10,000 nt of DNA from a virus (IMGVR_UViG_2690316285_000012), one strand, 5' to 3'; positions 114 through 9,838 are shown, counted from the first letter of the stretch. Notes: a model not told the origin generated them from the sequence alone. Program-made: numbers and translations.

Positions 114-748
114 TCATTTTCTCTGGCTGATCTTTACCGGATAACCATCCCGAAGATCAATTAAGTGCTCCGGTTCAGAAGCAAACCATGCATAAGATCC
201 CCACGCCAATTCTGGTATTGCCTTTTTAAAAGGCAGAGCACTTCTGTCCATAAATGCCGTAAGGAATGCAAGATTTTTCTCGCTGAACCCAGCGTCAATA
301 GCCAAATGAGTGAGAGTAACTTTTCGTTCCCTGTTTATAGGCCCATCTGTCGCAACTACTTCAGTGAAAACTACAAGCATGTCCGAACCCGTTCGGTCCT
401 CTCCCAAATCAATCAAAATAATATCTGGAAGTGCTTTTGAGGCATCAATATTCAGCCCCAATGCTTTTGCCAATACATCATCCTGAGCAACAACTTTATT
501 CCCGGATTCAGACAACCAGAGCACAGTTGGATTCTTAAGAAAATTAGGAGCAAAAACTTCGATGACGGCCTTAGCTATTGTACTTGACGGGCCCGGAGCT
601 AAAGTTCTCTTCTCTCCATTTGGGAAAGTGACGACTACGACATCAGCAGCAATCACTGCCCCTGATTTCAATAAACGCAACCTAGCAAGAGCGGCTTTGT
701 TCAAATGATTTTCTTGCCAGGAACTTATTGCACTCAGCAGCGAATCTC
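114..748 (-). CDS. Putative type II restriction endonuclease, C-terminal portion (BsuBI/PstI-like candidate); 5' end lies in masked block
   Basis: ORF-track ORF 114..704 (TTG start) is open upstream to the mask at 748. Sits directly downstream and co-directional with the MTase. Has an acidic PD...D/E-type stretch (LPDIILIDLGEDRTG...VVFTEVV). Family assignment is from memory of motif patterns, not a search. Confidence 0.5.
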
Positions 749-749
749 C

Positions 750-1187
750 NNNNNNNNNNNNNNNNNNNNNNNNNNNNNNNNNNNNNNNNNNNNNNNNNNN
801 NNNNNNNNNNNNNNNNNNNNNNNNNNNNNNNNNNNNNNNNNNNNNNNNNNNNNNNNNNNNNNNNNNNNNNNNNNNNNNNNNNNNNNNNNNNNNNNNNNNN
901 NNNNNNNNNNNNNNNNNNNNNNNNNNNNNNNNNNNNNNNNNNNNNNNNNNNNNNNNNNNNNNNNNNNNNNNNNNNNNNNNNNNNNNNNNNNNNNNNNNNN
1001 NNNNNNNNNNNNNNNNNNNNNNNNNNNNNNNNNNNNNNNNNNNNNNNNNNNNNNNNNNNNNNNNNNNNNNNNNNNNNNNNNNNNNNNNNNNNNNNNNNNN
1101 NNNNNNNNNNNNNNNNNNNNNNNNNNNNNNNNNNNNNNNNNNNNNNNNNNNNNNNNNNNNNNNNNNNNNNNNNNNNNNNNNNNNNNN
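750..1187. other. N-masked block (438 nt); further blocks at 1459-1728, 2591-3258, 5302-5714, 5885-6180
   Basis: Runs of n in the sequence. Any ORF segment shown as X in the track is unknown sequence. Confidence 1.
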
Positions 1188-1359
1188 TGGGCCTTATCCA
1201 TCGCCCCAGCCCCTCAACCGCACCAGCATAAAACATGACAAAAATTGTTTTTGCAGCTATTTCCCGAATTAAATATCCACGATTCTCAGTCCCTTCAGGG
1301 AAAATTAATTGTAATCTTTCCCGGATAACATTCAATGGGGGAACAACAGGCAGATTCAT
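1188..1359 (-). CDS. 5' portion of the restriction endonuclease gene, or a separate small gene; continues into masked block
   Basis: ATG at 1359, 63 nt downstream of the MTase stop; visible 57 codons MNLPVVPPLNVIRERLQLIFPEGTENRGYLIREIAAKTIFVMFYAGAVEG... Frame is offset by one relative to the 114..748 ORF. Confidence 0.4.
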
Positions 1360-1422
1360 GCAATCATCACTCCATAGAAACCAGCGATAGTTCTCTCAAT
1401 AATCCGTCTGTGGACGCCAGCA

Positions 1423-3450
1423 TCAATTAACGATTGAATCTCCATCACCTGCTCCAGANNNNNNNNNNNNNNNNNNNNNNNNNNNNNNNNNNNNNNNNNN
1501 NNNNNNNNNNNNNNNNNNNNNNNNNNNNNNNNNNNNNNNNNNNNNNNNNNNNNNNNNNNNNNNNNNNNNNNNNNNNNNNNNNNNNNNNNNNNNNNNNNNN
1601 NNNNNNNNNNNNNNNNNNNNNNNNNNNNNNNNNNNNNNNNNNNNNNNNNNNNNNNNNNNNNNNNNNNNNNNNNNNNNNNNNNNNNNNNNNNNNNNNNNNN
1701 NNNNNNNNNNNNNNNNNNNNNNNNNNNNCTGAGGTAAAATTGCCGCTAAAATCCTTCTGTCCTGTTCCTTCGATGTTGTCCGCTGAACAAGCACACATTC
1801 AGATTTTGTCACAAGGAAACCCTGTTGTGGGGTTATATCGATATAGGGAACATGATTTTTTCTGTCTGCACTAAAACGAAAACCAGCTGAAGTTATTGAT
1901 TCCGCCCAGACTAATGGGTAGCTATTTTTTCCTTTCGTCGTACGCAACTGCGACTTAAATCGATTCCAGACTAACTGACCTGTAGAGACTGAGTATCCCA
2001 GATCAGCTAAACGCGTAGACATCTGTTTTAATACATTAAGAAAACAGGCATCATCTTTAACGCGTGGCAAAAGCCACGTTGCTCCACCTTTTTCTATATC
2101 AACATTACCTATTTTCTCAATTTTTGCTTTGTTCAACCCCTTAGGGACAAGTGAGGATACCTGGGCCCGAACTTTATGTTCTCCCGCCTTGAATGCTGTC
2201 AACATTGTTTCCTGGAGAACATCGTCAAAGACCCCATCCCTGTCAGTGACGAAATCAAGGGCATACGGAGTAGTTTTTTCGGTCAAAAGGGTTCGCAGCG
2301 CGGTGAAATACTGCCCACCAAGAAAAGAAGTTGGCGTAAGAAATGCAATAACTCCTGTTTTCTCTTTAACCATGCGAACAGCTAAGTCGGTGAACAATCC
2401 ATATAGATTTGCATGACCAAATAACGAACGAGAATATTTTTCTCTCGTTTTAATATCGAGAGTGACACGTCCGTAAGGCGGATTCCCTACCACAAGATCA
2501 TAACCAGAAAATTTATCTTGCTGAAGCGCATCAGCAACAATAATTGTATCTTCAGGCAATCTACGTTTTACCTTTACACATAGTGGCATTNNNNNNNNNN
2601 NNNNNNNNNNNNNNNNNNNNNNNNNNNNNNNNNNNNNNNNNNNNNNNNNNNNNNNNNNNNNNNNNNNNNNNNNNNNNNNNNNNNNNNNNNNNNNNNNNNN
2701 NNNNNNNNNNNNNNNNNNNNNNNNNNNNNNNNNNNNNNNNNNNNNNNNNNNNNNNNNNNNNNNNNNNNNNNNNNNNNNNNNNNNNNNNNNNNNNNNNNNN
2801 NNNNNNNNNNNNNNNNNNNNNNNNNNNNNNNNNNNNNNNNNNNNNNNNNNNNNNNNNNNNNNNNNNNNNNNNNNNNNNNNNNNNNNNNNNNNNNNNNNNN
2901 NNNNNNNNNNNNNNNNNNNNNNNNNNNNNNNNNNNNNNNNNNNNNNNNNNNNNNNNNNNNNNNNNNNNNNNNNNNNNNNNNNNNNNNNNNNNNNNNNNNN
3001 NNNNNNNNNNNNNNNNNNNNNNNNNNNNNNNNNNNNNNNNNNNNNNNNNNNNNNNNNNNNNNNNNNNNNNNNNNNNNNNNNNNNNNNNNNNNNNNNNNNN
3101 NNNNNNNNNNNNNNNNNNNNNNNNNNNNNNNNNNNNNNNNNNNNNNNNNNNNNNNNNNNNNNNNNNNNNNNNNNNNNNNNNNNNNNNNNNNNNNNNNNNN
3201 NNNNNNNNNNNNNNNNNNNNNNNNNNNNNNNNNNNNNNNNNNNNNNNNNNNNNNNNNNTACGATGCTGAAGCAGTATGAGCGGGCATGCATCAACCTTGA
3301 CTGCCCGGTTTTGTAATTGCCCGCATAACCTTTGGCCATGGCTTTACAAGTTTGATATCTTTCCAGATTAGAAAACTCATTATCTGTAAAAAAATCAAAA
3401 TGTTGCACATTCATAATGTAAAATCCTAATGTATCAAACATGCGGGCCAT
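1423..3450 (-). CDS. N6-adenine DNA methyltransferase (gamma-class, Eco57I/TaqI-like) with target-recognition region; long form about 675 aa if continuous through masks
   Basis: Catalytic motif IV DLVVGNPPYG visible at 2460-2490 region. One uninterrupted frame connects the visible segments 3259-3450, 1729-2590 and 1423-1458 across both masks. Region is AT-rich relative to its neighbours. Confidence 0.75.
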   Translation of the reverse strand: MARMFDTLGFYIMNVQHFDFFTDNEFSNLERYQTCKAMAKGYAGNYKTGQSRLMHARSYCFSIVXXXXXXXXXXXXXXXXXXXXXXXXXXXXXXXXXXXXXXXXXXXXXXXXXXXXXXXXXXXXXXXXXXXXXXXXXXXXXXXXXXXXXXXXXXXXXXXXXXXXXXXXXXXXXXXXXXXXXXXXXXXXXXXXXXXXXXXXXXXXXXXXXXXXXXXXXXXXXXXXXXXXXXXXXXXXXXXXXXXXXXXXXXXXXXXXXXXXXXXXXXXXXXXXXXXXXXXXXXXXXXXMPLCVKVKRRLPEDTIIVADALQQDKFSGYDLVVGNPPYGRVTLDIKTREKYSRSLFGHANLYGLFTDLAVRMVKEKTGVIAFLTPTSFLGGQYFTALRTLLTEKTTPYALDFVTDRDGVFDDVLQETMLTAFKAGEHKVRAQVSSLVPKGLNKAKIEKIGNVDIEKGGATWLLPRVKDDACFLNVLKQMSTRLADLGYSVSTGQLVWNRFKSQLRTTKGKNSYPLVWAESITSAGFRFSADRKNHVPYIDITPQQGFLVTKSECVLVQRTTSKEQDRRILAAILPQXXXXXXXXXXXXXXXXXXXXXXXXXXXXXXXXXXXXXXXXXXXXXXXXXXXXXXXXXXXXXXXXXXXXXXXXXXXXXXXXXXXXXXXXXXSGAGDGDSIVN

Positions 3451-3664
3451 AACATCTCATGGTGGCGCATAGCAAACTGGCCCGAAGAATATCACGCACC
3501 AAGTCGATCTCATAACCCGTTATGACAATAAATCTTTGTAGCTGAACTCACTTGGTGATTTGTCAATCATTCCTGGCCTCCAGTTCGTCCTGAATCTCTT
3601 TATCGAGTTCACCGTATTTGTTAGTCCTCATCACTCACGACTTGACTTCCAGAAATAACCTTGA

Positions 3665-4021
3665 TTATTCGGGGCTATATTTTGTCACCCTGCGTATCCG
3701 CGCTTTCGCATTACGCTCAATCTGGATTAGCTTTTCTATATTTTTTCGCCTTTCCCGCTCCTCCTGGCGCAAGAGCCTTACATCATCTGCCAGTCTGGTT
3801 TCTCTTTTCGCCACAGAGAGCATCCAGTCAAATGGCTCCACAACTGCACCGCAAATTTTACAGCGGACCTGACGCTCTTTTTCGTCAACCCGGACAGAGG
3901 CGTGATGGCAATATGGTCTTTCCGATGGCTCATAAAGAAAATTAACCTGATTACGAGGGTTATCCTCTTTTACCGGAAATAAAACAATATTGCTTAACTC
4001 ATCTTCTGGTTTTATTTCCAT
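3665..4021 (-). CDS. Hypothetical phage protein (118 aa) with putative zinc-ribbon (C-H-H...C-x2-C) and basic coiled-coil C-terminus
   Basis: ATG at 4021 preceded by AAAGGAGAGGAGC Shine-Dalgarno. Motif YCHHASV...CKICG; C-terminus rich in R/K/E. Last gene of a compact three-gene block. Confidence 0.55.
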   Translation of the reverse strand: MEIKPEDELSNIVLFPVKEDNPRNQVNFLYEPSERPYCHHASVRVDEKERQVRCKICGAVVEPFDWMLSVAKRETRLADDVRLLRQEERERRKNIEKLIQIERNAKARIRRVTKYSPE

Positions 4022-4078
4022 GCTCCTCTCCTTTGATGCGAATGCCAGCGGTAATTGAAGCCTGATAGCTAATTTCAC

Positions 4079-4501
4079 TCACAGTACCGCCTCCTGAAAA
4101 TCACCCTGATAGAAAGCCGGTACACGCTGCATAACTTCACTCTTCCGGCACTCGCGACAGATTATGTTCTGATGTCTGTCGTAGCGGCGTATTTCTCCGT
4201 CTGGTAATGACCAGATAAGGTCCGGATCAACCACAGATGGTTTCTTCAGCTTTGCCCTCGAGAGTTTTTTGCGGGCGTTTTGCCAGTCCTTACGAGCCTG
4301 TTCAGACGGGAATAACCCGTAGCCAGAGTTGTATACATCCCCACTGGCAACCAGCTCTCTGGCGAGAACGCTTATTAAATATCTTGTCGCCCCGGTTTTA
4401 GCTTCCAGTTGTCGTAACGTCTCGCGCCCACTCTGGCGTACGAGTTCAACAACCTGCCCCTTAATTTTTTCCCGCTCTTCCTGTGTAAATACTTTTGCCA
4501 T
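4079..4501 (-). CDS. Hypothetical phage protein (140 aa) with HTH-like N-terminal segment
   Basis: ATG at 4501 preceded by GGGGG-rich RBS. Upstream gene stop at 4517 and downstream start at 4021 give tight operon packing. Segment ETLRQLEAKTGATRYLISVLAREL resembles a helix-turn-helix. Confidence 0.55.
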   Translation of the reverse strand: MAKVFTQEEREKIKGQVVELVRQSGRETLRQLEAKTGATRYLISVLARELVASGDVYNSGYGLFPSEQARKDWQNARKKLSRAKLKKPSVVDPDLIWSLPDGEIRRYDRHQNIICRECRKSEVMQRVPAFYQGDFQEAVL

Positions 4502-4516
4502 AAGCGCCCCCGGCAA

Positions 4517-5242
4517 TCACTTTTCCGACACAATACGACCGGAGGAATCGACAATCTGTCGAACAATATCCCGGTGCTTGTTCAGCTCCCGCAACGCGGC
4601 GCAGACACGCTCCCACTTCTGGACATGACTTTTCGCCCGACGCAGTTCGCGGTTTGCCATATGCAGCGATGGTAAAACCAGGTCATCCGCTTGCGTTTCG
4701 GTGAACGATGGCAACGACTGCACAATGTCCGCCACAGTTTCTGTTTTAATTTCTTCCTGTGTTGCAGCTTCCTGTACCGGTAACGCAACACCTGCTGGCT
4801 GAGGAAAGACTTTACCATCCGTTTCCGCTATGGATGCGGCTTTCGGCTCTGCCGGTAAATCAGCGCCCGGTATGCAGTACCGAAATTTACCGCCCTGATT
4901 CACGCGAATCAGACGCCCTTTGCTGATTGCCATGGCCAGCGATGAATTCGCCCGGCGGGAGGTAATCCCGAACATCAGTGCCAGCTCATCCGCCGTTTGT
5001 GGGCCATGTTGTTCAATCGCCTCAGTCAGCATTTGCGCTGTCACTTTCGGTACCGGTGACACTGGTTCACTTTCACCAGCCTGAATCAGCCACCACATCG
5101 AACCCTTGTTATCCGCTTCACCACGGCGCTTCAGTTTCCACAGTTCGTTGACCGCATCTTCACGGCTGATTCCAAGGCGGGACGCCACCACATGTGAAGA
5201 GGCTCTTTTCAGTGCTTTCAGTGCGTCAAATACAGTTTCCAT
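4517..5242 (-). CDS. Hypothetical phage protein (241 aa), two predicted winged-helix-like segments
   Basis: ATG at 5242 with GGAGG 8 nt upstream (ORF-track TTG start at 5260 also possible). Starts about 27 nt after the DnaC-like stop. GC-rich like the replication genes. Confidence 0.6.
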
Positions 5243-5268
5243 TAAAACATCCTCCAACAAAAATTACT

Positions 5269-5884
5269 TCACAACTCCCGGAAAGCTGACATTTGAACGC
5301 CNNNNNNNNNNNNNNNNNNNNNNNNNNNNNNNNNNNNNNNNNNNNNNNNNNNNNNNNNNNNNNNNNNNNNNNNNNNNNNNNNNNNNNNNNNNNNNNNNNN
5401 NNNNNNNNNNNNNNNNNNNNNNNNNNNNNNNNNNNNNNNNNNNNNNNNNNNNNNNNNNNNNNNNNNNNNNNNNNNNNNNNNNNNNNNNNNNNNNNNNNNN
5501 NNNNNNNNNNNNNNNNNNNNNNNNNNNNNNNNNNNNNNNNNNNNNNNNNNNNNNNNNNNNNNNNNNNNNNNNNNNNNNNNNNNNNNNNNNNNNNNNNNNN
5601 NNNNNNNNNNNNNNNNNNNNNNNNNNNNNNNNNNNNNNNNNNNNNNNNNNNNNNNNNNNNNNNNNNNNNNNNNNNNNNNNNNNNNNNNNNNNNNNNNNNN
5701 NNNNNNNNNNNNNNTACCCATCGCCGCTGCAAGGTGATTTTTCCCGGTGCCGGTTTTACCGCTGAACACAAAATTCGTGCACCCGGTCATCAGTTCGTCA
5801 GCTATGGATTTGGCCTGGCTCAGCGCGTATTTTTGCCCGTCGTTCTGCACCTGATAATTCGCAAACGAGCATTTGCTGTGCAGA
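5269..5884 (-). CDS. DnaC-family AAA+ helicase loader (phage P-analog / YdaV-like); 5' end in masked block
   Basis: Visible stretch KCSFANYQVQNDGQKYALSQAKSIADELMTGCTNFVFSGKTGTGKNHLAAAMG closely parallels the E. coli DnaC Walker A region (FSGKPGTGKNHLAAA). Frame stays open upstream into mask 5885-6180; same frame ends at 5269 after mask 5302-5714. Confidence 0.75.
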
Positions 5885-6180
5885 NNNNNNNNNNNNNNNN
5901 NNNNNNNNNNNNNNNNNNNNNNNNNNNNNNNNNNNNNNNNNNNNNNNNNNNNNNNNNNNNNNNNNNNNNNNNNNNNNNNNNNNNNNNNNNNNNNNNNNNN
6001 NNNNNNNNNNNNNNNNNNNNNNNNNNNNNNNNNNNNNNNNNNNNNNNNNNNNNNNNNNNNNNNNNNNNNNNNNNNNNNNNNNNNNNNNNNNNNNNNNNNN
6101 NNNNNNNNNNNNNNNNNNNNNNNNNNNNNNNNNNNNNNNNNNNNNNNNNNNNNNNNNNNNNNNNNNNNNNNNNNNNNNNN

Positions 6181-7157
6181 AACCAGGGGTTTTCAAAATT
6201 CCGGTCCGGCCCAAAAAACGTCGTCGCTCGCTGAACAAATTCCGTTCCCGCTTTCCCGGTCGCCGCCAGGTATCTCGCGTAACGCCTCACACCATCCAGC
6301 ATGGTCTCTGGTGGCACCCCCTCGCGCAATCTGGCCTTCCAGGCACTGAATGCGGATTTCTTCGGGTTTGCCCCGGCACGCAACGGGTATTCCCGCCAGA
6401 CCTGTTCGAACACATCCGGATAATCCACTCGTCCCACAGGCTGCCCGGTGTTTTCCGGGGCTACCCGATCGGCTTCCCGCTGAATGGCGGAATCGGCTTC
6501 AGGCTGCTGCAGTTGGAGTGATTGCTCCGGCCTTGCGGTCATCACCTGCTGCACAGCGCCCGAATCGGCTTTCAGCGCATACGCTGAATCGGCTTCCGGT
6601 GTCGAGCCTGCTGGCTGACCAGGATTGACGGTCTGAACATCCCCTGCCTGGTTCGTGGCGTTTTTTACGCCATGGACCATAGTGTTTTGATCTTCTTTAT
6701 CTGTATCTTTATCTGTATCTGTCGTGACTCGTCGTGACATGTGCGTGACATTTCGTGACGCGCCGTGACAATCGCCATTTTGTTCCCGCTTTCTTTCCCT
6801 CTCTCGCTGCGCCCTCTTGCGCTCTGCAGGAGATTTTGCGGTTTGCGAAATATTGCCGTTGTCCTCTTTAAGCACCTGGCGTTTTTCCCATCCAGTGATT
6901 AAATCACCATCAAGTACCCGCCCCTGCATCGTCTGCAAAATTGAATCAATTACCTCTTCTGTCACGTCGAGCGCACTTGCCAAATCTTCTGTCGTGACAT
7001 CAATGTGACCTCGCGTGACATTTCGTGACGCGCTCACCAGGAGGTGGATATACACTGCCATCACTGTTGCAATTGGCTGCCCTGACACCCTGGCAATTGT
7101 TCGCCACTTAGGGTCATTTGGCATGTCATGCCATAATCTGAGCCAGGCGTTAGCCAT
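6181..7157 (-). CDS. Phage replication initiator / replisome organizer (lambda O analog); 3' end in masked block
   Basis: ATG at 7157 preceded by GAGGTGA RBS (ORF-track GTG at 7163). N-terminal HTH-like region MANAWLRLWHDMPNDPKWRTIARVSGQPIATV. Iteron repeats lie inside the gene and it sits immediately upstream of the DnaC-like gene. Confidence 0.7.
6694..6717. repeat. Perfect tandem duplication of 12-bp unit TCTTTATCTGTA (AT-rich), adjacent to the iterons
   Basis: 6694-6705 and 6706-6717 are identical. Encodes the low-complexity TDKDTDKD linker of the initiator on the minus strand. Confidence 0.7.
6721..6769. repeat. Iteron cluster 1: five CGTGAC repeats at roughly 10-11 bp spacing (putative origin)
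   Basis: CGTGAC at 6723, 6733, 6744, 6754, 6764, about one helical turn apart, flanked by the AT-rich tandem repeat at 6694-6717. Confidence 0.6.
6961..7033. repeat. Iteron cluster 2: four (C/T)GTGAC repeats at 10-11 bp spacing plus one inverted copy
   Basis: CGTGAC/TGTGAC at 6993, 7004, 7014, 7024; inverted GTCACG at 6961-6966. The 21-mer GCGTGACATTTCGTGACGCGC at 7013-7033 is identical to 6743-6763. Confidence 0.6.
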
Positions 7158-7228
7158 ACTCACCTCTTCTGATACCGAATCTTTTTACTCACGAGTTGCC
7201 GGGAGCGATTCGATATGGCTATTGTCAG

Positions 7229-7654
7229 TCAATGTACTGCCACAGCATTTCCTGCCGGGCCACCACGGTTCATCTGATTGAAACCGGCGATTGCCACTGC
7301 GACAAAATCATCAGCGTCTCTCACCAGTCGTTCATGCGTCTCCACCAGTTCCCGAAAATAAGCTGAACTGTGGCTGCGCATTCGAGCCACCAGCGGAGGT
7401 GGCATTGCCCTTTCGATCGCAGGTAACAACGCCTGAATTTTTTCAACAGCGTCAGGGGTGTCTTTATCCAGCCAACGGAAAATCTTTTGGGTGTTGAGAT
7501 AAAGCGTGTTGTGCTTGCTGTCGTTATGCAGAACCGGAAACGTCATTCCCAGTTCGAAATAAACCCTGGTTATTTCAGCTGCCGGAACTTTTTCACCGTC
7601 CGGATGCGCCCAGGCTTTCATCGCCATGCGGATGTGTTCATGCTTGATTTTCAT
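7229..7654 (-). CDS. ydaT: YdaT-like protein (proposed cII analog / toxic prophage regulator), 141 aa
   Basis: ATG at 7654 overlaps the upstream gene stop (ATGA). N-terminus MKIKHEHI and the size match recalled Rac YdaT. Position is Cro-like gene, then this gene, then replication genes. Confidence 0.65.
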   Translation of the reverse strand: MKIKHEHIRMAMKAWAHPDGEKVPAAEITRVYFELGMTFPVLHNDSKHNTLYLNTQKIFRWLDKDTPDAVEKIQALLPAIERAMPPPLVARMRSHSSAYFRELVETHERLVRDADDFVAVAIAGFNQMNRGGPAGNAVAVH

Positions 7655-7990: not shown

Positions 7991-8018
7991 TCAAAGTGAT
8001 TAGCAATCTTATTAGAAT
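7990..8018 (+). promoter_or_regulatory. Candidate PRM-like promoter for the repressor gene (-35 TTCAAA 7990-7995, -10 TAGAAT 8013-8018)
   Basis: 17-bp spacer. Predicted start site falls at or just before the ATG at 8026, implying a leaderless or near-leaderless mRNA. Abuts operator 7976-7990. Confidence 0.3.
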
Positions 8019-8025
8019 TGGATGT

Positions 8026-8526
8026 ATGAAAAGAAAATCATTGTCAGACACCGACCTCAACGCCGCCAGAAGACTGAAAGAAATCTGGATGGCAAAGAAA
8101 TCTCAGTTGGGATTGACTCAGGAACGTGCGGCGGAAATTATGGGGTTTTCAACACAAGGGGCGGTAAGTCACTACCTAAATGGTCAAACCCCACTAAACC
8201 TTGAGGCTGTTCTAAAGTTTGCTGGCTTACTGAAAGTTCCCCCTGAGTCAATCAGGCCAGACATGGTAGATTTGCTGCAAATTGCAAGGATGTATTGTCG
8301 AGAACCACAGCAAGATAACATAGTCGCATTACCAGCAGACACAGAACAAACAGAGGATGAACTACCGTTTGCCGTAGAGCCGATGGAACGAGATTTAATC
8401 CATACGTTCAGAGCTTTTCCGAAAGAAGATCAAGAACACATGCTTCAGGAGATGAAAGATAAAAAAGAATCAATGGATCGTACGGTTGCGCGGTGGTTAG
8501 CTGCACAAAAAGGCCGTCGCGCCTAA
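8026..8526 (+). CDS. paaR2: Cro/CI-family prophage repressor (RacR/PaaR-type), 166 aa from ATG 8026
   Basis: HTH segment LGLTQERAAEIMGFSTQGAVSHYLNG. Divergent from the Cro-like gene across an operator-containing intergenic region and first gene of a three-gene operon with antitoxin and ParE toxin. No S24 peptidase domain is evident. ORF-track GTG start 7996 is the alternative. Symbol by architecture only. Confidence 0.65.
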   Translation: MKRKSLSDTDLNAARRLKEIWMAKKSQLGLTQERAAEIMGFSTQGAVSHYLNGQTPLNLEAVLKFAGLLKVPPESIRPDMVDLLQIARMYCREPQQDNIVALPADTEQTEDELPFAVEPMERDLIHTFRAFPKEDQEHMLQEMKDKKESMDRTVARWLAAQKGRRA

Positions 8527-8545: not shown

Positions 8546-8740
8546 ATGAGTACAGTCCTTTCCCCAATGGTTTCAGAATTTGAGACAGTTGAGCAAGAAA
8601 ATAGTTACAACGAATGGCTGCGGGCCAAAGTAGCAGCAAGCCTCGCGGATCCCCGCCCGGCGATTCCGCATGATGAGGTAATGGCGGAAATGGAACAAAT
8701 TATTGCCCAAATTGCTGCTGCAACTCACAGAGGTGAATAA
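8546..8740 (+). CDS. paaA2: Small antitoxin (PaaA2/ParD-like), 64 aa
   Basis: GAGGAG RBS 9 nt upstream. Stop TAA overlaps the toxin ATG (TAATG). Small acidic protein immediately upstream of a ParE-family toxin. Symbol by architecture and size. Confidence 0.6.
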   Translation: MSTVLSPMVSEFETVEQENSYNEWLRAKVAASLADPRPAIPHDEVMAEMEQIIAQIAAATHRGE

Positions 8741-9030
8741 TGTTACCCGTTTTATGGCTACCATCTGCTCGTGATGATTTGCGCCAGATCGTAGCCTACA
8801 TAGCTAAAGAAAATCCCGCGGCAGCACGCAGAATGAAAATTCGAATTGAAACATCCGTTTTGCCGCTCACAGAGCATCCTTACCTGTATCCTCCAAGCGA
8901 GCGAGTTCTTGGTCTTCGTGAAATTGTAACTCATCCTAACTACATCATCCTTTACCGAGTAACAGCATCAAGCATAGAAGTAGTAAATATTGTGCATTCT
9001 CGAAGACAGTATCCAGGCAAAAACAGTTAA
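8740..9030 (+). CDS. parE2: ParE/RelE-superfamily toxin, 96 aa
   Basis: Typical ParE pattern: W...A..DL..I..YIA.ENPAAA.R....I, then YIILYRV and VVNIVH near the C-terminus. Translationally coupled to the upstream antitoxin. Confidence 0.75.
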   Translation: MLPVLWLPSARDDLRQIVAYIAKENPAAARRMKIRIETSVLPLTEHPYLYPPSERVLGLREIVTHPNYIILYRVTASSIEVVNIVHSRRQYPGKNS

Positions 9031-9129: not shown

Positions 9130-9308
9130 TTCAGGCGTCAACCCACCCCGCCCCACAGAATGCAGGGCAATACTTCGAGTTACCAGACAGTGGTCAGGGG
9201 TTAAGTAGCCAGCCCGAGGCGTAAGAACATGACGGCAGGGTTCAATCTTTAACTATGCAGCAGGTTTTTTGTTCCGCCACCCCGGCGTTAAGGGGAAATG
9301 AGGTCAGC

Positions 9309-9461
9309 ATGGATACTATCGATCTTGGCAACAACGAATCTCTGGTGTGCGGCGTGTTCCCTAACCAGGATGGAACGTTTACCGCCATGACGTATACCAA
9401 AAGCAAAACGTTTAAAACCGAATCTGGCGCGCGTTGCTGGTTAGCCAGAAACACTGACTGA
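9309..9461 (+). CDS. Small early-left protein, 50 aa (YdaF/YdfA-like, DUF1391-type candidate)
   Basis: ATG 9309 with GAGG 5 nt upstream; the ORF-track start 9255 lacks an RBS. Sequence MDTIDLGNNESLVCGVFPNQDGTFTAMTYTKSKTF. First gene downstream of the PL-like promoter. Confidence 0.5.
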   Translation: MDTIDLGNNESLVCGVFPNQDGTFTAMTYTKSKTFKTESGARCWLARNTD

Positions 9462-9472
9462 TGAGGCTGACG

Positions 9473-9838
9473 ATGGAATTTAAAGATTTACCGTCTGATG
9501 TACAGAAAACAGCAGCTCATACATTGCATTCTGTGCTGCGAGAAATCGGGAAAGATATTGCAAGCGAGCCAGCAAAAGATCTGGCCCGGAAAATCAAGAC
9601 CGCTTTCGTTGAGCTTTATAATGTTGGCACTGACTCTGAAACTGTCGAGACCAAGACCGTAAGTTCACCAATATTCTCACTTGAGCCAAGCGTATTATCA
9701 GGTGAAATATGCACCGAGATTTCCAGCGAACTGCTTCCGGTAATACGAGAAGCAATTCGCCGTCGCGGTTTGGATGGAAGTTATGATCATGACGTTCTGC
9801 AAGTTCTCAGGACAATGGTGACTTCACTGGGGATTTGA
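9473..9838 (+). CDS. Hypothetical early-left protein, 121 aa
   Basis: ATG 9473 with GAGG 5 nt upstream; the alternative ATG 9461 overlaps the upstream stop. No recognizable motif. Confidence 0.45.
   Translation: MEFKDLPSDVQKTAAHTLHSVLREIGKDIASEPAKDLARKIKTAFVELYNVGTDSETVETKTVSSPIFSLEPSVLSGEICTEISSELLPVIREAIRRRGLDGSYDHDVLQVLRTMVTSLGI

Follow-up and report, generated by a model that had tools for sequence, protein, structure and literature searches.

Three small genes, called here A, B and C, lie side by side on the minus strand (positions 3665–5242) of a stretch of viral DNA of 10,000 nucleotides (IMGVR_UViG_2690316285_000012), hereafter the window, where they are enclosed between a helicase loader gene and a type II restriction-modification (R-M) cassette. 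Such a compact block raises the question of whether its members form one conserved regulatory or anti-host unit, as a sequence-only reading of this DNA had suggested, or are neighbours that assort separately, and of what they might do for the phage. We observed that A, B and C shuffle independently and do not make up a single conserved module. The interpretation that we favour, and hold to be rather probable, is that the block consists of three accessory genes which assort independently within the early-right operon (pR-type) of a Rac-like lambdoid prophage, probably one of Shigella sonnei or E. coli.

The window covers the immunity and early-right region of such a prophage, with the gene order cI, cro, YdaT-like gene, initiator, DnaC-like loader, A, B, C and R-M. 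The gene of the cI/DicA-like repressor is carried by the plus strand (7996–8526); the slot after cI is occupied by a RelB/RelE pair and no rexAB-like genes were found in the window. The minus strand carries cro (7941–7651), a YdaT-family gene (7654–7229), the replication initiator gene (7163 to about 6020) and the gene of a DnaC/YdaV-like helicase loader (about 6015–5269). Five N runs in the window mask parts of the R-M and replication genes. The loader gene is largely masked and was read in its 3′ part (5269–5850); its start is probably near 6015, inside a masked run. The translation of the loader ORF contains a Walker A motif, GKTGTGKNHLAAA, and an unmasked homologue of 248 amino acids is found directly upstream of gene A in the contig L026. 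On the other side of the block, also on the minus strand, the genes of an Eco57I/HsdM-like methyltransferase (3450–1423) and of a BsuBI/PstI-type restriction endonuclease (1359–114) constitute the type II R-M cargo, separated from gene C by a junction (3451–3664, minus strand) at which the homology with nearly all other E. coli prophages ends (at about 3661–3679). The best protein matches of A and C are from Shigella sonnei, with up to 99–100% identity.

Reading of the minus strand gave the three genes of 241, 140 and 118 amino acids as they had been described from the sequence alone: gene A at 5242–4517 (ATG 5242, TGA 4519–4517), gene B at 4501–4079 (ATG 4501, TGA 4081–4079) and gene C at 4021–3665 (ATG 4021, stop codon 3667–3665). 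The gap of 57 nt reported between B and C was found again, while that between A and B is 15 nt by our count and not 14. A good ribosome binding site had been assigned to each gene. This is correct for A (GGAGG, 8 nt 5′ of the ATG) and C (AAGGAG, 6 nt 5′ of the ATG) but too generous for B, which is preceded only by a G-run (GGGGG) and is weaker in this respect. All three starts agree with the RefSeq gene lengths in a 93%-identical locus. In addition, METV is conserved at the start of A in an alignment of 34 family members (19–80% identity) and M1 is invariant among 29 homologues of C. Median dN/dS values calculated against 21–43 distinct alleles were low (0.25 for A, 0.12 for B and 0.14 for C), indicating that A, B and C are real coding genes under purifying selection.

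The GC content decreases along the block, from 0.537 in A to 0.501 in B and 0.448 in C, to be compared with 0.54 for the replication genes, 0.415–0.44 for the R-M genes and 0.45–0.47 for cI/cro. The match to the phage core that had been claimed for the whole block is therefore retained for A and B, which are close to the replication genes, and lost for C, which is nearer to the R-M genes and to cI/cro. A scan of positions 3300–5300 detected neither an internal sigma-70-like promoter nor a minus-strand terminator above chance, which fits a single early-right transcript. Scanning of the same interval for repeats likewise gave nothing above chance, in or around the block, that resembled operator-like repeats or inverted repeats. 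The Rfam search of the whole window returned no match, with no Pas-type or other sRNA evident there; genes of the DUF1627 family, to which A belongs, have been noted near PasA/PasC (2026 preprint).

Gene A matches the full profile (1–155) of Pfam PF07789 (DUF1627) with 5.9e-93 and 309.2 bits for a cut-off of 28.1, and phrog_630 over its full length with 1.7e-121. Only 159 clusters of this small family were counted at 50% identity, in a set of 1.84 billion representatives. An AlphaFold2 model built from the 34-sequence alignment (mean pLDDT 80.7) contains two winged helices, both with pLDDT above 90, at residues 1–55 (nt 5242–5078, minus strand) and 66–125 (nt 5047–4868, minus strand). They are followed by a disordered acidic and Pro-rich linker (residues 126–190) carrying a short conserved ‘LPSFT’ motif, and by a long C-terminal helix (residues 193–240, nt 4666–4523). 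Gene A has in this way the DUF1627/YdaW architecture, composed of a first winged helix, a linker, a second winged helix, a variable linker with (I/L)PxF(T/A) and a C-terminal helix with an EIRR-type segment. Foldseek searches with the model retrieved tandem winged-helix proteins: ScpB, the SelB C-terminal domain, ESCRT-II and AlkX. What A has in common with ScpB, the SelB C-terminal domain, ESCRT-II subunits and AlkX/AlkZ is the succession of two winged helices (Foldseek E 2.5e-5 to 1e-3), and this is a likeness of fold only, with TM-scores of about 0.2 and 12–22% identity. These adaptors are moreover devoid of the disordered linker and C-terminal helix, and gene A lies outside their families. 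PDB sequence searches, with single proteins or with profiles, yielded nothing significant for the block, and with A only generic winged-helix matches (E 0.0026 or worse).

A named relative of A is YdaW. The protein of phage Rac is 80% identical to that of gene A (85–90% at the DNA level), and the Rac genes ydaU-ydaV-ydaW-lygF follow the same order as initiator, DnaC-like loader, A and B in the window, but lygF is followed in Rac phages by other small genes and not by gene C. Public records show this arrangement as ydaU-ydaV-ydaW-lygF in phage Rac, and RefSeq gives DUF1627, DUF977 and ‘hypothetical’ in succession. YdaW of the K-12 Rac prophage matches residues 1–139 of A at 57% identity and is a truncated copy, without the linker motif and the C-terminal helix. 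Overexpression of K-12 ydaW blocked the retron-Sen2 toxin RcaT in a screen (bioRxiv 10.1101/2020.06.22.160242), a result to be read as that of an overexpressed, truncated protein reduced to the two-winged-helix fragment.

By profile comparison, gene B is a clear homologue of lambda Ren. It matches Pfam PF06163 (DUF977) with 2.2e-30 and phrog_142, ‘Ren-like exclusion protein’, with 2e-46; lambda Ren (NP_040633) falls in the same PHROG (1.6e-41). The DUF977 family had earlier been assigned to the winged helices (Kinch et al. 2009, PMC2686095). Alignment of the B family with Ren by hhalign gave 95.3% probability and E 2.4e-8 over 88 columns, which take in the winged helix as well as the C-terminal motif. 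Pairwise BLASTP recovered only the C-terminal motif of 20 residues (50% identity, E 1e-5), which is NIICRECRKSEVMQRV in B and NLVFKECRQSAAMKRV in Ren, and pairwise identity is low outside this motif. On the minus strand, the winged helix of B occupies approximately residues 11–61 (nt 4471–4319) and the Ren-type motif, of the form ECRxSxxMxRV, is located within residues 96–132 (nt 4216–4106). Between the two, B carries a basic insertion of about 45 amino acids which is absent from Ren and explains the difference in length (140 versus 96 amino acids). The position is also comparable, both genes following the replication genes in the rightward early operon (O-P-ren in lambda); in the window, however, gene A separates B from the loader gene, and no Rex system can be seen. 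Finally, the winged helix of B was matched by hhalign with the second winged helix of A (88.6%, E 2.7e-6), indicating that a Ren-type winged helix is common to A and B.

Gene C matches phrog_1621 over residues 1–115 with 1.1e-54. Its homologues, all annotated as hypothetical, are distributed in Escherichia, Shigella, Salmonella, Klebsiella, Kluyvera, Serratia, Erwinia, Yersinia, Pluralibacter and others. In the alignment of 29 of them, from at least 10 genera, C38, H40, C54 and C57 are invariant together with 20 further columns, and the C-terminal helix is basic and nearly invariant. Along the minus strand, a disordered N-terminus with a conserved E-L-x-N-V-V-x-F-P motif precedes a CxH...CxxC zinc ribbon (residues 38–57, nt 3910–3851) and a long helix (residues 63–115, nt 3835–3677) ending in the near-invariant NIEKLIQIERNAKARIRR. 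In the AlphaFold2 model (pLDDT 73.9), a helix of some 50 residues accordingly extends from a small zinc ribbon. No significant neighbour of gene C was retrieved from the PDB by sequence, profile or Foldseek searches or from BFVD by Foldseek, the Foldseek searches giving none at E ≤0.001. The best structural match, to the TFIIB N-terminal domain (Foldseek probability 0.87), reflects a common four-ligand beta-hairpin zinc knuckle. It differs, however, in several respects: the Foldseek E-value is 0.26, the ligands of C are CxH...CxxC, its long conserved helix is without counterpart in TFIIB, and the TFIIB zinc-ribbon profile (Pfam PF08271) scores 21.6 bits (E 1.6e-4), below the cut-off of 29. A relationship of C to the Nin proteins of lambda was considered and dropped: comparison by hhalign of the A, B and C family alignments with NinB, C, D, E, F, G and H gave at best 16%, for C with NinF, over 19 columns around the CxxC.

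The three products had been presented as uncharacterized proteins with DNA-binding-like features, none of them recognizable as a named Nin or replication protein. A (DUF1627/YdaW), B (DUF977/PHROG 142) and C (PHROG 1621) all belong to catalogued families. The folds were well predicted, with two winged helices in A, one in B and a zinc ribbon with a basic helix in C. The absence of named relatives is right with respect to Nin and wrong for B, given its homology to Ren. The literature searchable here offered no tested function for proteins of DUF1627, DUF977 or PHROG 1621; NCBIfam has no family for A, B or C and PADLOC gave no meaningful match for any of them. A toxin-antitoxin pair was also considered, and dropped for lack of family support.

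We then turned to the distribution of the genes in related phages. Around close relatives of B, sampled as 80 viral contigs carrying B at 91% identity or more, four arrangements were observed with similar frequencies: A-B-C in 14, A-B in 19, B-C in 19 and B alone in 14, with C located further downstream in a few more. There is thus no positive association of A with C, as independent assortment predicts. Where A is absent, B directly follows the initiator gene (40 of 80 related loci). Seen from close relatives of A, the next gene is B in 32 loci out of 80 and a different helix-turn-helix protein of about 85 amino acids in 46. Gene C is found in yet other surroundings: at 14 loci of other Enterobacterales (Erwinia, Yersinia, Photorhabdus, Phytobacter and others) it is inserted between the gene of a structure-specific nuclease (NinG, YbcO, RusA or DUF968) and that of the antiterminator Q, with neither A nor B upstream. 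Among 5,426 complete E. coli genomes searched by megablast, A was detected in 2,396, B in 4,103 and C in 1,679, and the contiguous trio (at least 80% of positions 3600–5300 covered) in 51. At 85–93% identity, the trio recurs in these 51 genomes and in 14–16 of the 80 viral contigs.

The origin of the particular trio of the window can be followed at its borders. Over the whole interval between cI and the end of C, the window is collinear with a near-identical contig, L026, which departs from it at 3679. A different contig, L109, is 100% identical to the window from codon 13 of C into the methyltransferase gene, but its B and C are 2.4 kb further apart, with another DnaC-like gene and another copy of B in the additional sequence. 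In an E. coli genome which has the junction of C with the R-M genes, the order is initiator, DnaC-like gene, B, C and R-M, without A. This junction between C and the methyltransferase gene was present in only 2 of the 5,426 E. coli genomes, and homology with the others ends at the stop codon of C. On the simplest reading, an A-B(-C) early region and a related B-C-R-M one underwent homologous recombination, and the trio of the window would be a recent product of it. Mosaic arrangements of this kind are typical of lambdoid phages.

Gene A showed a strong, though imperfect, linkage to helicase loader genes. The gene upstream of A was DnaC-like or lambda-P-like at 37 of 37, 74 of 76 and 37 of 44 loci in three samples, the last one composed of distant A genes, 7 of which directly follow the initiator gene. 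Conversely, in the B-anchored sample, the 4 kb upstream of B contain no loader gene, DnaC-like or lambda-P-like, at any of the 40 loci lacking A. The two loader types are unrelated, and identical alleles of A were found after both. Read from the loader, the rule has an exception, one lineage having a DnaC-like gene and then directly B. The possibility that an initiator tail, ‘...EIPPGFRG’, substitutes for the loader was rejected, this tail being also present on initiators upstream of DnaC-like loaders. Since the sampled loci are phylogenetically non-independent, and cassette inheritance alone could explain the pattern, the link of A with loaders is a lead and not a demonstration.

These observations weigh differently on the explanations that can be offered for the block. 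If A, B and C were one conserved regulatory or anti-host unit, inherited together and acting together, for example in a complex, then their tight packing, their common orientation, the presence of DNA- or protein-binding folds in all three and the recurrence of the trio in E. coli genomes and viral contigs would find an easy explanation. We judge this very improbable: the presence and absence combinations around B are similarly frequent, the gene after A is less often B than another one, C exists without A or B in other genera, and the trio of the window is collinear only piecewise with different contigs, the R-M-bearing relative having B-C without A. Two outcomes had been named beforehand as speaking against such a unit, clear homology to Nin/Ren-type proteins and absence of conservation as a unit across related prophages; both were observed, the first of them for B with Ren. 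Attribution of the block to the BsuBI/PstI-type system itself, as C-protein-like controllers for instance, is in our opinion exceedingly improbable. The block adjoins the methyltransferase and endonuclease genes in the same orientation and the GC content of gene C resembles theirs, but A, B and C are spread over 1,679 to 4,103 E. coli genomes against 2 for the junction, and the homology with other prophages stops exactly at the stop codon of C. A role of A, B and C as R-M controller proteins was rejected on this distribution, and nothing ties any of them to the R-M cargo. That the block is not recent cargo, as had been argued from its GC content, is borne out for A and B, which are ordinary accessory genes of the phage core; the GC argument itself fails for C.

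A closer competitor makes A and B accessory replication proteins, involved in origin binding, helicase loading or release, with C unrelated to them. Both genes come immediately after the initiator and loader genes, and for A there is the strong linkage to a separate loader gene, whichever its type. The description of ren as ‘likely involved in DNA replication’ comes from Thomason et al., who also report bacterial two-hybrid interactions of the Rex proteins with O and Ren (bioRxiv 10.1101/2021.04.19.439022). Tandem winged-helix proteins such as ScpB are furthermore protein adaptors on DNA machines. Against this, many phages with the same initiator or loader do without A or B, and PDB sequence and profile searches found no similarity to a known replisome component. 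Lambda ren is, moreover, dispensable for replication, and we consider this explanation rather unlikely. It is quite improbable, on the other hand, that A and B are sequence-specific transcription factors of phage nin or late genes or of host genes. Their winged-helix folds, weak profile matches to MarR/ArsR-type regulators and to the centromere-binding protein AspA, and the inclusion of YdaW in a list of E. coli transcription factors of unknown function (PMC9308461) speak in favour of such a role. These profile matches, however, are below significance and generic to the fold, no operator-like or inverted repeat was conspicuous in the block and its surroundings, no promoter of its own was found, and tandem winged-helix proteins often bind protein or RNA.

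Returning to three independently assorting accessory genes of the early-right operon, we can regard as shown how the genes are built, to which families they belong, how they fold, that they are under purifying selection and that their distribution is mosaic, while each functional step that follows is inferred. Read-through transcription would reach A, B and C after cro, the ydaT-like gene and the initiator and loader genes, early after induction or infection, and the three would provide early, non-essential accessory or counter-exclusion functions. B is the local version of lambda Ren, placed in the canonical ‘ren slot’ after the replication genes. Ren reportedly gives lambda resistance to Rex exclusion, in classical genetics ascribed to Toothman and Herskowitz in 1980, and such resistance, or the binding of Rex proteins, is known for lambda Ren only. 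In a Ren-like manner, B could allow the replicating phage to escape a Rex-type abortive-infection/exclusion system, and an anti-host role for this gene is plausible. It would probably bind a protein partner and not serve as a repressor of the classical, operator-binding kind; an interaction of Ren with RexB was recorded in a yeast two-hybrid screen (PMC3224144). A might be a tandem winged-helix adaptor, serving as accessory or counter-defence factor at or near the phage replication complex, a lead that comes from its linkage to loaders, its Ren-like winged helix and the report on ydaW and RcaT. C is a freely moving gene of the nin region; its zinc-ribbon product, with a helix that is probably a dimeric coiled coil, could bind a conserved host or phage target through this invariant basic helix.

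A more ambitious scheme, distinctly unlikely as a whole, would join these proposals into one ‘replication-shield’. A would then be the dedicated partner of separately encoded phage helicase loaders, either tuning the hijack of host DnaB or masking the loader or replisome from an abortive-infection sensor; A and B would together represent a Ren-type winged-helix class of counter-defence proteins, and the helix of C would be directed to a conserved host factor.

As a discovery the block carries little weight: its families are already listed in Pfam and PHROGs, B is the counterpart of a named lambda gene, and each of A, B and C is carried by between one third and three quarters of the complete genomes of E. 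coli. Its residual value lies in families that are abundant, under purifying selection and predicted to be expressed early. The linkage of A to loaders, taken with the distant Ren-like relationship of A and B, leads to a testable hypothesis, according to which these proteins may act at the replisome, in counter-defence or as replication accessories.

Genes of the YdaW/DUF1627 family, to which gene A belongs, are almost always found directly downstream of a helicase-loader gene (viral contigs L025-L342; junction at 5269-5242 in the window). Some of these loaders are DnaC-like and others lambda-P-like, two types unrelated to each other. Behind both, identical A alleles were observed, and A was absent from the loader-less replication modules of the B-anchored sample (80 viral contigs with close relatives of gene B, the lambda Ren homologue). 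The 'ren slot', the place after the replication genes in the early-right operon, has an alternative occupant: in 46 of the 80 loci sampled for close A relatives, A is followed not by B but by a protein of ~85 aa (L114, L121, L122 and others; ~4700-5031, locus coordinates) carrying two helix-turn-helix-like segments and weakly matching Pfam HTH_7 (E 1.2e-4).

Otherwise unrelated replication initiators (L073/L074-type, L089, L180, L031) have in common a C-terminal tail, ...(V/Q)N(H/T)(I/V)S(E/L)PD(T/S)(E/A)IPPGFRG, which occurs both with and without a DnaC-like loader downstream. Either a docking peptide common to these initiators or a mosaic boundary inside the gene could account for this tail. 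The corresponding stretch of the window initiator is N-masked. Five such runs, of 270-668 nt each (750-1187, 1459-1728, 2591-3258, 5302-5714 and 5885-6180), cover portions of the REase, MTase, DnaC-like and initiator genes, for which ORF lengths and Pfam results are therefore incomplete.

Between cro and the initiator, the cII position is filled by a YdaT-family gene (7229-7654, minus strand; PF06254, 5.1e-9), a likeness to the ydaS-ydaT arrangement of Rac. The place that holds rexA and rexB in lambda is taken in the window by a plus-strand toxin-antitoxin pair (8546-9030): the RelB-family antitoxin (64 aa; NF050103, 3.3e-27) and its RelE/StbE-family toxin (96 aa) are encoded directly downstream of the cI-like repressor. 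In the relative bearing restriction-modification (R-M) genes, which lies in E. coli FDAARGOS_943, a ParD/ParE pair adjoins the R-M genes instead. Two more plus-strand ORFs, of 68 and 125 aa, follow the RelBE pair (9255-9838); comparison of the 125-aa ORF with NCBIfam gave zero matches.

The type II R-M cargo (114-3450, minus strand) comprises an Eco57I/HsdM-like MTase and a BsuBI/PstI-family REase, with a GC content of 0.415-0.44. It starts exactly past the stop codon of gene C, the zinc-ribbon gene (junction ~3661-3679). Among 5,426 complete E. coli genomes, only 2 have this junction. In Shigella-type IMG/VR contigs nearly identical to the window, the DnaC-like - B - C series occurs a second time, 2.4-3.7 kb downstream of its first copy (L026, 6911-8418; L109, ~5124-7500); deletions or insertions with endpoints inside B or C set these contigs apart from the window. 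Together, these endpoints and the second copies indicate that the duplicated early regions undergo ongoing homologous recombination with each other.
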